A DNA stretch of 64,000 bases from Escherichia coli (GTDB lineage Bacteria; Pseudomonadota; Gammaproteobacteria; Enterobacterales; Enterobacteriaceae): the NCBI RefSeq assembly GCF_965641715.1, contig NZ_OZ282453.1; one strand, given 5' to 3'. Positions 44,501 through 47,500 of this stretch are shown in pieces. A program made the position numbers. Within the stretch, counting starts at the first letter, position 1, and the number at the start of each line of letters is the position of its first letter.

Positions 44501-47500
44501 GGCTGATGTGGGAGGGAGTGTTATTCTTCTTTCCGCAACCCTACCAATGAAACAAAAACAGAAACTTCTGGATACTTATGGTCTGCATACAGATCCAGTG
44601 GAAAATAACTCCGCATATCCACTTATTAACTGGCGAGGTGTGAATGGTGCGCAACGTTTTGATCTGCCAGCTCATCCAGAACAACTCCCGCCCCGCTTTT
44701 CGATTCAGCCAGAACCTATTTATTTAGCTGACATGTTACCTGACCTTACGATGTTAGAGCGAATGATCGCAGCGGCAAACGCGGGTGCACAAGTCTGCCT
44801 CATTTGCAATTTGGTTGACGTTGCACAACTATGCTTCCAACGGCTAAAGGAACTAAATGACACGCAAGTAGATATAGATTTGTTTCATGCGCGCTTTACG
44901 CTGAACGATCGTCGTGAAAAAGAGAATCGTGTCATTAGCAATTTCGGAAAAAATGGGGAGCGAAATGTTGGACGAATACTTGTCGCCACCCAGGTCGTGG
45001 AACAATCACTCGATGTAGATTTTGATTGGTTAATTACCCAGCATTGTCCCGCTGATTTGCTTTTCCAACGATTAGGCCGTTTACATCGCCATCATCGTAA
45101 ATATCGTCCCGCCGGTTTTGAGATTCCTCTGGCAACCGTTTTGCTGCCTGATGGCGAAGGTTACGGACGACATGAGCATATTTATAGCAACGTTAGAGTC
45201 ATGTGGCGGACGCAGCAACATATTGAGGAACTTAATGGAGCATCCTTATTTTTCCCTGATGCCTACCGGCAATGGCTGGATAGCATTTACGATGATGCTG
45301 AAATGGATGAGCCAGAATGGGTCATCAAAGGCATGGATAAGTTTGAAAGCGCTGAGTGTGAAAAGAGGTTCAAGGCTCGCAAGGTTCTGCAGTGGGCTGA
45401 AGAATATAGTTTGCAGGATAACGATGAAACCATTCTTGCGGTAACGAGGGATGGGGAAATGAGCCTGCCATTATTGCCTTATGTACAAACGTCTTCAGGT
45501 AAACAACTGCTCGATGGCCAGGTCTACGAGGACCTAAGTCATGAACAGCAGTATGAGGCTTTAGCACTTAATCGCGTCAATGTGCCATTTACCTGGAAAC
45601 GTAGTTTTTCTGAAGTAGTCGATGAAGATGGGTTACTTTGGCTGGAAGGAAGGCAGAATCAGGATGGATGGATCTGGCAGGGTAACAGTATTGTTATTAC
45701 CTACACTCGGGATGAAGGGATGACCAGAGTCATCCCTGCAAATCCCAAATAACTTCGGGAATGATTGGTATCAATGACGATAACAAGACCAATAACGGTT
45801 TATCCCTACTTAAGTAGGGAAGGTGCACAATGTACATCTTCTTTTAATTTCCCGGTATGAGATTTTATATTCGCAGTATGAATATTTTATGTAATAAAAT
45901 TTATGGTAATTATTATAACTAAAAGTTTCTTTGATAATAAAACGAATAACTTGCAGATTTGAAATGCATGCATTATTGTCTTTAAACAATTCAACACATC
46001 TTAATATATGTATAGGTTAATTGTATTAAACCAATGAATATATTTTTGCAGTGAATGTGATTATTGAATTAATTACGCCGTATTTTTTCTTTGTTTTTAC
46101 CGATAACGGAAGTGTGCCGACGTATAGAAATGCAGGAGAAATGTCGGAGCATATGAAGGAGAACAAATGAATTTGCTTATTGATAACTGGATCCCTGTAC
46201 GCCCGCGAAACGGGGGGAAAGTCCAAATCATAAATCTGCAATCGCTATACTGCAGTAGAGATCAGTGGCGATTAAGTTTGCCCCGTGACGATATGGAACT
46301 GGCCGCTTTAGCACTGCTGGTTTGCATTGGGCAAATTATCGACCCGGCAAAAGATGACGTTGAATTTCGACATCGCATAATGAATCCGTTCACTGAAGAT
46401 GAGTTTCAACAACTCATCGCGCCGTGGATAGATATGTTCTATCTTAATCACGCAGAACATCCCTTTATGCAGACCAAAGGTGTCAAAGCAAATGATGTGA
46501 CTCCAATGGAAAAACTGTTGGCAGGGGTAAGCGGCGCGACGAATTGTGCTTTTGTCAATCAACCGGGTCAGGGTGAAGCATTATGTGGTGGATGCACTGC
46601 GATTGCGTTATTCAACCAGGCGAATCAGGCACCTGGTTTTGGTGGTGGCTTTAAAAGTGGTTTACGTGGAGGAACACCTATAACCACCTTCGTACGTGGG
46701 ATCGATCTTCGCTCGACGGTGTTACTCAATGTCCTCACAATACCTCGTCTTCAAAAACAATTTCCCAATGAATCACATACGGAAAACCAACCTACCTGGG
46801 TTAAGCCTGTCAAACCCAATGAATCTGTGCCAGCTTCGTCAATTGGCTTTGTCCGCGGCTTATTCTGGCAACCAGCGCATATTGAATTATGCGACCCCAT
46901 TGGGATTGGAAAATGTTCTTGCTGTGGGCAGGAAAGCAATTTGCGTTATACCGGTTTTCTTAAGGAAAAATTTACCTTTACAGTTAATGGGCTATGGCCC
47001 CATCCGCATTCCCCTTGTCTGGTAACAGTCAAGAAAGGGGAGGTTGAGGAAAAATTTCTTGCTTTCACCACCTCCGCACCATCATGGACACAAATCAGCC
47101 GAGTTGTGGTAGATAAGATTATTCAAAATGAAAATGGAAATCGCGTGGCGGCGGTTGTGAATCAATTCAGAAATATTGCGCCGCAAAGTCCTCTTGAATT
47201 GATTATGGGGGGATATCGTAATAATCAAGCATCTATTCTTGAACGGCGTCATGATGTGCTGATGTTTAATCAGGGGTGGCAACAATACGGCAATGTGATA
47301 AACGAAATAGTGACTGTTGGTTTGGGATATAAAACAGCCTTACGCAAGGCGTTATATACCTTTGCAGAAGGGTTTAAAAATAAAGACTTCAAAGGGGCCG
47401 GAGTCTCTGTTCATGAGACTGCAGAAAGGCATTTCTATCGACAGAGTGAATTATTAATTCCCGATGTTCTGGCGAATGTTAATTTTTCCCAGGCTGATGA

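Follow-up and report, generated by a model that had tools for sequence, protein, structure and literature searches.

A likely CreR-type antisense mini-CRISPR between cas3 and cse1 in the type I-E locus of Escherichia coli

The cas3-cse1 intergenic region and its degenerate repeats

The window analysed in this work is a 64,000-nucleotide stretch of Escherichia coli DNA (RefSeq assembly GCF_965641715.1, contig NZ_OZ282453.1), and our subject is the intergenic region that separates cas3 from cse1 (casA) in its CRISPR-Cas locus of type I-E (CRISPR: short palindromic repeats, clustered and regularly interspaced). Work on type I-E CRISPR-Cas takes E. coli K-12 as its reference organism, in which the cas operon is notoriously silent. 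The locus in the window is a complete E. coli one, with strong NCBIfam matches for every cas gene. The region contains the cas promoter Pcas, the antisense promoter anti-Pcas and the sites of the regulators LeuO and H-NS. An earlier note, made from the sequence alone, had pointed to a perfect palindrome and a repeat-like 11-mer just after the cas3 stop codon. We consider it likely that these two belong to a two-repeat antisense mini-CRISPR, running from 45824 to 45736, which serves as a self-repression device of the CreR type. Its parts (psiR1, psiS and psiR2) and their surroundings are as follows.

43086-45752, plus strand: cas3 (NF007248, 1609 bits); its final codons (..NPK and stop) form one arm and the loop of psiR2
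45753-46166: cas3-cse1 intergenic region, 414 bp, 30% GC
46167-47675, plus strand: cse1/casA (NF007247, 904 bits)
51841-52420: CRISPR-I array, with the true repeat GAGTTCCCCGCGCCAGCGGGGATAAACCG
45824 to 45796, minus strand: psiR1, a degenerate CRISPR repeat, ACCTTCCCTACTTAAGTAGGGATAAACCG
45803-45820: 18-bp palindrome, which is the psiR1 stem-loop (7-bp stem, UUAA loop)
45765-45795, minus strand: psiS, a 31-nt spacer-like guide, TTATTGGTCTTGTTATCGTCATTGATACCAA (begins TTATTGGTCTTGTTATCGTC)
45764 to 45736, minus strand: psiR2, a second degenerate repeat, TCATTCCCGAAGTTATTTGGGATTTGCAG (7-bp stem, GUUA loop)
45744-45803, minus strand: predicted mature CRISPR RNA (crRNA)-like RNA of 60 nt (8-nt handle, 31-nt psiS, 21-nt hairpin), deduced from the geometry

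The description of the region as strongly AT-rich was confirmed, with a GC content of 30.2% against 44.6% in cas3, 44.3% in cse1 and 50.2% in the whole window. Taken together, the cas genes (43086-51736) stand at about 44% GC where the window as a whole has 50%, as would fit an island acquired horizontally and targeted by H-NS. Strain XH990 carries the intergenic region at 100% identity, and this region was found in 1133 of 5426 complete E. coli genomes. As the locus is an E. coli one and the region is 98.3% identical to that of K-12 MG1655, the earlier label "K-12-type" is correct; the supposed control of Pcas by H-NS and LeuO also agrees with the LeuO core palindrome, which could be located at 45867-45885.

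The palindrome CCCTACTTAAGTAGGG at 45804-45819, given as 16 bp, proved to be longer, since the full perfect palindrome is the 18-bp TCCCTACTTAAGTAGGGA (45803-45820). Taken alone it is within chance expectation: three perfect palindromes of at least 16 bp were observed in the window against 1.4 expected from Markov shuffles. The other two are CTGGCCATTAATGGCCAG at 48054-48071 inside cse2, and AAGAAACGCGTTTCTT at 42675-42690 in an open reading frame (ORF, 41840-42727) upstream of cas3. The 11-mer CGGTTTATCCC lies at 45796-45806 on the plus strand and shares 3 nt with the palindrome. As had been stated, it equals the end of the CRISPR repeat on the opposite strand, being the reverse complement of the last 11 nt of GAGTTCCCCGCGCCAGCGGGGATAAACCG. 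It occurs 26 times in the window, where 25 copies lie within true repeats (on the other strand) and the copy at 45796-45806 is the sole other; chance would give 0.06 copies per 64 kb, which argues against the coincidence that the earlier note had considered.

Three things had escaped that note, namely a hairpin over the cas3 stop, a match between spacer and target, and the union of 11-mer and palindrome in a single 29-nt unit. This unit, psiR1, is identical to the true repeat at 19 of 29 positions and carries the complete 5' handle AUAAACCG (8/8). It takes the fold of the true repeat, ....(((((((....)))))))......., with a 7-bp stem and a 4-nt loop at -10.3 kcal/mol (z -3.5). Ungapped identity was rejected as the sole mark of psiR1, because a chance site at 11458 also reaches 19/29 and the handle, hairpin and context are needed as well.

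The second unit, psiR2, is less well preserved (15/29 identical to the true repeat). It retains UUCCC...GGGAU and the stem, its last 7 nt are degenerate, and the same pattern was seen in other taxa. The cas3 stop codon (45750-45752) falls within its loop, where it is read as the reverse complement. On the minus strand psiR2 folds at -8.5 kcal/mol (z -3.2) with the dot-bracket of the repeat; on the plus strand it folds poorly (-4.3 kcal/mol) owing to one G-U pair. The layout psiR1, 31-nt psiS and psiR2 is thus that of a one-spacer CRISPR array directed away from cse1. Two repeat-like units surround one spacer-like stretch between cas3 and cse1, outside the canonical array; psiR1 keeps the nucleotides of the 5' handle and psiR2 the hairpin of the 3' handle, and both units retain on the minus strand the repeat-type hairpin that is the kind of substrate cut by Cas6e.

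The Rfam 15 covariance models matched no family here, giving only noise-level snoRNA hits (E >1). A 35-aa ORF with a hydrophobic core, MYIVHLPYLSRDKPLLVLLSSLIPIIPEVIWDLQG, spans psiR1, psiS and psiR2 on the minus strand (45730-45837). It is probably spurious, as it has no start codon in the orthologous locus L044 described below. A CreT-like toxin at the element was therefore rejected: this ORF is the sole small one over the element, and it is not conserved in L044, the closest orthologue.

The earlier note had further remarked that the palindrome lacks a T-tract and hence does not resemble a terminator. This observation stands, for no T run follows the stem, and a scan for an intrinsic cas3 terminator (a G+C-rich hairpin with a T-tract) gave 0 terminator-like sites.

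The guide, its target and their conservation

A possible target of psiS was searched for on both strands of the whole 64-kb window by PAM-proximal matches (PAM, protospacer-adjacent motif). The predicted site lies within the intergenic region itself.

45949 to 45918, minus strand: predicted target (protospacer), TTATTCGTTTTATTATC, preceded by AAG
45950-45952, minus strand: the AAG PAM (CTT on the plus strand)

The guide and the target are identical at positions 1-5, 7-8, 10-11 and 13-17 (45949 to 45933). Mismatches fall at 6, 12 and 18 and, in addition, at 9, and no matches are found past positions 17-18 of 31. In the type I-E Cascade, positions 6, 12 and 18 are flipped out and do not pair. 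Within 1-18 the site hence matches at 14 of the 15 pairing positions, and 45949 is the only AAG-flanked site of the window with a psiS seed match. When the spacer was shuffled by a Markov model, the probability was 0.001 for the 10-position seed score and <0.0005 (0/2000) for the 15-position score. The element thus has PAM-proximal, partial psiS complementarity with a cognate PAM, confined to positions up to 17-18 of 31; the nearness of this site to Pcas is discussed below, where the promoter is placed by projection. It is established that such short complementarity prevents interference by Cas3.

In 9 of 10 loci (the window, L001, L002, L006, L009, L014, L017, L036 and L044) guide and target do not match at position 6, Edaphovirga being the exception, and among the E. 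coli relatives the target base at this position varies between C, T and A. Such a pattern is compatible with a non-pairing position, the sample being too small to show selection for a mismatch. Phage-borne mimics of the guide (Cracr-type) were rejected because a phage collection gave only AT-rich noise; the sole pattern match from IMG/VR (L045) was put down to chance, as it lies inside an ORF and has no hairpin.

The mini-array element is present at no less than 95% identity in 1132 of the 5426 complete E. coli genomes. Between K-12 and the window, differences occur at psiS position 12 and target position 17. More distant copies show that guide and target change together. In strain HCP4S3_I4 (L002), where the intergenic region is 88.7% identical, G is replaced by A at position 7 in both psiS and target, and position 9 is matched. 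At the place where casA ought to begin, this strain (locus 780-1079) has an annotated IS3-family transposase, which disrupts the Cascade operon; mini-array and covarying target are nonetheless intact. In L044, an Escherichia-like locus from a metagenome that shares the cysH...iap context and has a Cse1 protein 71% identical and the psiR1 sequence CCATTCCCCGCTGATGTGGGGATAAACCG, T is replaced by C at position 8 in both psiS and target, and the target is again adjacent to AAG.

To cover a wider range, 37 loci were gathered via Cse1 alignment, and the 25 with an identified CRISPR repeat were analysed. Of the 15 loci whose cas3 and cse1 abut, overlap or lie only 75 bp apart, not one had the minus-strand element. 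Among the loci with a cas3-cse1 spacer of about 180 bp or more, it was present in six of ten, or 7/11 when the window is counted. These six carriers are Citrobacter amalonaticus, two Pantoea, Marinomonas shanghaiensis, Edaphovirga cremea and Izhakiella australiensis. In each of them an antisense psiR1 directly follows cas3, the handle ATAAACCG is complete or nearly so (one ends in A), and 5-7 of the 7 hairpin pairs form. No repeat-like element was detected by handle-plus-hairpin criteria in L004, L005, L026 (Xenorhabdus) and L035 (Erwinia sp. OLFS4), whose spacers are 183-475 bp long and lie upstream of position 6501; other content may occupy these spacers.

The psiS sequences of the six are mutually unrelated across genera. 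Nevertheless, in each case the best match of psiS within its own spacer lies on the same strand, is AAG-flanked, agrees at 9-10 of 10 seed positions and is situated 100-250 bp upstream of cse1, whereas non-cognate pairs of psiS and spacer between genera mostly score about 5 and at the highest 8. All of the cognate psiS-target pairs tested (8/8) are flanked by AAG.

Conservation of the palindrome across type I-E loci, which the earlier note had proposed as a check, gave a divided answer, since its base-pairing is conserved and its sequence is not. Across taxa, 95% of the psiR1 pairs and 94% of the psiR2 pairs are kept, each hairpin having three pairs changed on both sides (compensatory). The three C-G pairs at the base of the stem are invariant in psiR1 and show one change, to a U-G wobble, in psiR2. 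Moreover, the palindrome always lies directly 5' of the invariant asymmetric handle AUAAACCG on the minus strand. Conserved pairing and an adjoining asymmetric handle together mark the hairpin of a CRISPR repeat that is read as RNA. Conservation falls on the would-be mature crRNA-like RNA (the psiR1 handle and the psiR2 hairpin), and the remainder drifts.

These data bear directly on the view taken by the earlier note, that the palindrome looks like a protein-binding DNA site (for a dimeric regulator, in the fuller form considered here), with an 11-mer beside it that may be coincidental or a relic. A perfect 18-bp palindrome in a regulatory spacer does invite this view, especially as LeuO and LrhA bind palindromic sites in the same region. 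However, the palindrome by itself does not exceed chance expectation, the LeuO palindrome already known has another place (45867-45885), and between genera the sequence changes, the pairing is kept and the hairpin is always fused to the asymmetric handle; for a cas3 terminator, another role that the palindrome might have, neither a T-tract nor a terminator-like site was found. We thus regard a regulator site or terminator with a chance 11-mer as very improbable. The expected partner of the palindrome is Cas6e/CasE acting on RNA rather than a DNA-binding factor, and the 11-mer is better described as the 5' handle and stem base of psiR1, which comes with a covarying AAG-flanked target by Pcas.

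Another explanation is an inert, decayed relic, left by an old inverted CRISPR array or by recombination at the end of cas3 and having no present function. The low identities of psiR1 (19/29) and psiR2 (15/29) to the repeat would suit it, and so would the degenerate repeats found elsewhere in the window and the decayed copy in a Salmonella relative. The decay at this site, however, is non-random: handle, stem-base pairs and hairpin geometry are kept, and the parts outside the mature RNA drift. In addition, psiS and its AAG-flanked target covary in the orthologous locus, and the match has been re-created with unrelated sequences in six other genera. A relic is therefore unlikely in our view.

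The degenerate repeats elsewhere comprise an array-terminal repeat and a remnant pair about 450 bp downstream of the second array. This pair, consisting of ATATTCCTTGTAAAAACAGGGATAAACCG and ATGTTCCCCGCGTCAGCGGGGATAACCAT around a 20-nt spacer, AACTAGTTAAAGTTTTTATT, resembles another mini-array; no site in the window offers a valid PAM along with a seed match to its spacer. The remaining features of the window that concern the system are listed here.

46167 to 51736: cse1, cse2, cas7, cas5, cas6e, cas1 and cas2, downstream of cas3
52453-52481: array-terminal degenerate repeat
25348-26352: second CRISPR array
26809-26886, plus strand: remnant pair of degenerate repeats

Promoters and a possible feedback on Pcas

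Anti-Pcas, which goes back to Pul et al. (2010), has been reported as an H-NS-repressed promoter just downstream of cas3, which yields a highly structured RNA of 150-200 nt overlapping cas3 (PMC7074321, PMC10011333); a review of 2023 still gives its role as unknown (PMC10011333). As to Pcas, the core of LeuO site IIa is a 19-bp palindrome composed of two 7-bp halves with 5 bp between them (PMC6698644). LeuO/LrhA site II lies at -116 to -101 and site I at +40 to +55 from the Pcas start, with a nearly identical motif in both (PMC12968389). In the window ATGAATAT occurs at 45878 and at 46034, 156 bp apart. This pair, the LeuO core at 45867-45885 and the published site numbering together place the Pcas start near 45995. 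A start near 46080, suggested by GAAATGCA motifs, was dropped after the LeuO core palindrome and the ATGAATAT spacing had given about 45995.

45867-45885: LeuO site IIa core palindrome, ATATTCA-CAGTA-TGAATAT in K-12, where it is the sole such sequence; the left half-site in the window is ATATTCG
45959-45987, plus strand: putative Pcas core, projected rather than mapped (-35 TTGAAA at 45959-45964; -10 TTTAAA/TTAAAC at 45981-45987; start near 45995)
45909-45963, minus strand: two overlapping sigma70-like sites, TTCAAA-18-TATTAT (45963-45934) and TTATCA-17-AATAAT (45937-45909), candidates for anti-Pcas

The window differs from K-12 at position 45873 (ATATTCG versus ATATTCA in the left half of LeuO site IIa). 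The high-affinity LeuO site is thus imperfect in this strain, and the activation of Pcas by LeuO might differ between strains.

Relative to the Pcas start so placed, the PAM lies at about -43 to -45 and the protospacer at -46 to -77, abutting the -35 element; the target is 218 bp upstream of casA. Protospacer and PAM overlap the minus-strand sigma70-like sites. A transcript of 150-200 nt would agree with a start near 45902-45927 and with an end near psiR2 (45736). On these positions and this length, anti-Pcas probably drives the mini-array, and its 150-200-nt RNA would be the mini-array precursor.

The following course of events is proposed. Leftward transcription would start in the intergenic region, most likely at anti-Pcas, as the published transcript length and position and the promoter-like sites suggest. 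In E. coli type I-E, Cas6e is known to cut the repeat after G21, and the element has the sequence and structure that Cas6e requires. Cas6e could hence bind the two hairpins and cut each of them after the G at the 3' stem base, releasing a 60-nt RNA with the AUAAACCG handle and a 3' hairpin. Loaded into Cascade, this RNA would direct recognition of AAG at 45952-45950 and pair only along the PAM-proximal ~17 nt (45949-45933), giving a partial R-loop; complementarity, PAM and their covariation across taxa are what the comparison shows for this step. Partial pairing without a full R-loop would not license Cas3, and Cascade would act as a bound repressor. For RNAs of the CreA/CreR type it is established that partial pairing makes Cascade a bound repressor.

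Sitting at -43 to -77, Cascade would abut the Pcas -35 element and cover the -10/-35 elements of the candidate anti-Pcas, so that repression would reach its own operon and, probably, its guide. The analogy with Liu et al. (2023) suggests that such negative feedback should matter in cells freed from silencing by H-NS, and that it should be relieved when plentiful crRNAs or anti-CRISPRs titrate Cascade. That the anti-Pcas RNA is the native precursor of a CreR-type guide, and that one Cascade site abutting the Pcas -35 and covering the anti-Pcas core promoter exerts double negative feedback on effector and guide, is in our judgement about an even bet. If it holds, a third layer of control would lie under H-NS and LeuO, with the Cascade level set by competition from crRNAs or anti-CRISPRs.

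The anti-Pcas RNA might instead be a plain antisense RNA whose pairing to the cas3 mRNA, at its 3' end, influences how that message is terminated, how stable it is or how it is translated, the hairpins being general structure. The discoverers of anti-Pcas proposed this role, the transcript was reported to overlap cas3 and to be highly structured, and psiR2 does lie over the last cas3 codons. But this explanation leaves unaccounted for the invariant AUAAACCG handle, the repeat-like hairpins, the fixed psiR1-psiS-psiR2 order and the covarying AAG-flanked target 120-150 bp away. We consider it improbable as the explanation of the element; the role is nonetheless compatible with a self-repressing mini-CRISPR, and the two may coexist.

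Several points weigh against the CreR-type interpretation. First, psiR1 is strongly diverged, with only 19/29 identities and an A-U-rich upper stem, and we have assumed that Cas6e tolerates this stem. The guide has 31 nt instead of the usual 32, position 9 is a true mismatch in both the window and K-12, and pairing ends at about 17 nt. Second, the element is absent from 4 of the 11 long-spacer loci. In the K-12-like type I-E loci of Salmonella enterica (L041/L042; 6599-7001; Cse1 77% identical), psiR2 is recognisable and psiR1 has decayed (CACCTCCCTCTTGTCGGATGGGTAAACCA), and an AAG-flanked target was looked for there and not found. The genomic setting of these loci is a different one, with NERD/UvrD-helicase and LAGLIDADG genes as neighbours. 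With its absence from four long-spacer loci and its decay in this relative, the element is dispensable. Third, the starts of Pcas and anti-Pcas are projections from published relative coordinates rather than mapped ends, and it is by deduction that the element is transcribed from anti-Pcas, cleaved by Cas6e and loaded into Cascade. Finally, both promoters are silenced by H-NS in laboratory K-12, and feedback may therefore be conditional.

If the interpretation is right, an RNA-guided autorepressor in the Pcas region would represent a layer of control that most regulatory studies of this promoter ignore. Among these are reporter fusions that contain the whole 414-bp spacer, and work on H-NS, LeuO, CRP, SlyA and LrhA.

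Relation to known regulatory mini-arrays

Shmakov et al. (2023; 10.1101/2023.03.03.530964 = PMC10120712) predicted a regulatory mini-array in the E. coli type I-E locus. As described there, its place is between cas3 and cas8e/cse1, its transcription runs opposite to that of cas3, its upstream repeat is better conserved and the distal one degraded, and the seed adjoins the better repeat. It has a partial, AAG-flanked target with sixth-position mismatches, at an H-NS site immediately upstream of Pcas. All of these traits agree with the element at 45736-45952, and we infer from this match with the published description that the two (theirs being that of Fig. 4B, PMC10120712) are the same. That account differs from the present one in that anti-Pcas is not mentioned and that only a Pseudomonas aeruginosa I-F1 example was tested experimentally.

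Liu et al. (2023; 10.1101/2023.03.10.532045) found that the type I-E CreR of Salmonella enterica ATCC 51960 repressed PcasA through the Cascade of E. coli, and that extra crRNAs relieved the repression. Like the element in the window, this CreR is a degenerate mini-CRISPR in the cas3-casA spacer, keeps the 5' handle in psiR1 and the hairpin of the 3' handle in psiR2, and has an AAG-flanked target upstream of casA (10.1101/2023.03.10.532045). The Salmonella psiS, however, starts with TAG and matches over 15 consecutive nt at a site about 140 bp upstream of casA (10.1101/2023.03.10.532045), whereas the match in the window is interrupted at 6, 9 and 12, at a distance of 218 bp upstream. In the main text of that paper E. 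coli MG1655 serves only as host, and a native E. coli creR is not reported (10.1101/2023.03.10.532045). In the literature searched, we came upon no paper that puts the native E. coli element to an experimental test.

The CreTA modules of type I systems (antitoxin RNA CreA, toxin CreT) follow the same principle, as a partially complementary crRNA-like RNA turns Cascade into a transcriptional repressor. The difference is that CreA represses a toxin gene; in the window no conserved small ORF lies over the element, and no conserved toxin candidate is present.

The anti-Pcas of E. coli K-12 (PMC7074321, PMC10011333) agrees with the element in strand and region, and its H-NS-repressed, cas3-overlapping RNA of 150-200 nt was likewise predicted to be highly structured. 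It differs in having been described as a promoter and transcript with no known role, and to equate its RNA with the mini-array precursor is a step taken here from length and position. Were this step correct, the orphan anti-Pcas transcript would gain a function.

Both the class (CreR, or regulatory mini-array) and the prediction for this locus are already known, so the element is not a discovery. What the present analysis adds to the prediction of Shmakov et al. is covariation and the comparison across genera. As concept and locus prediction had been published, its value is that of an independent comparative confirmation, and its interest lies in a putative native function in the model organism and in the probable link to anti-Pcas.

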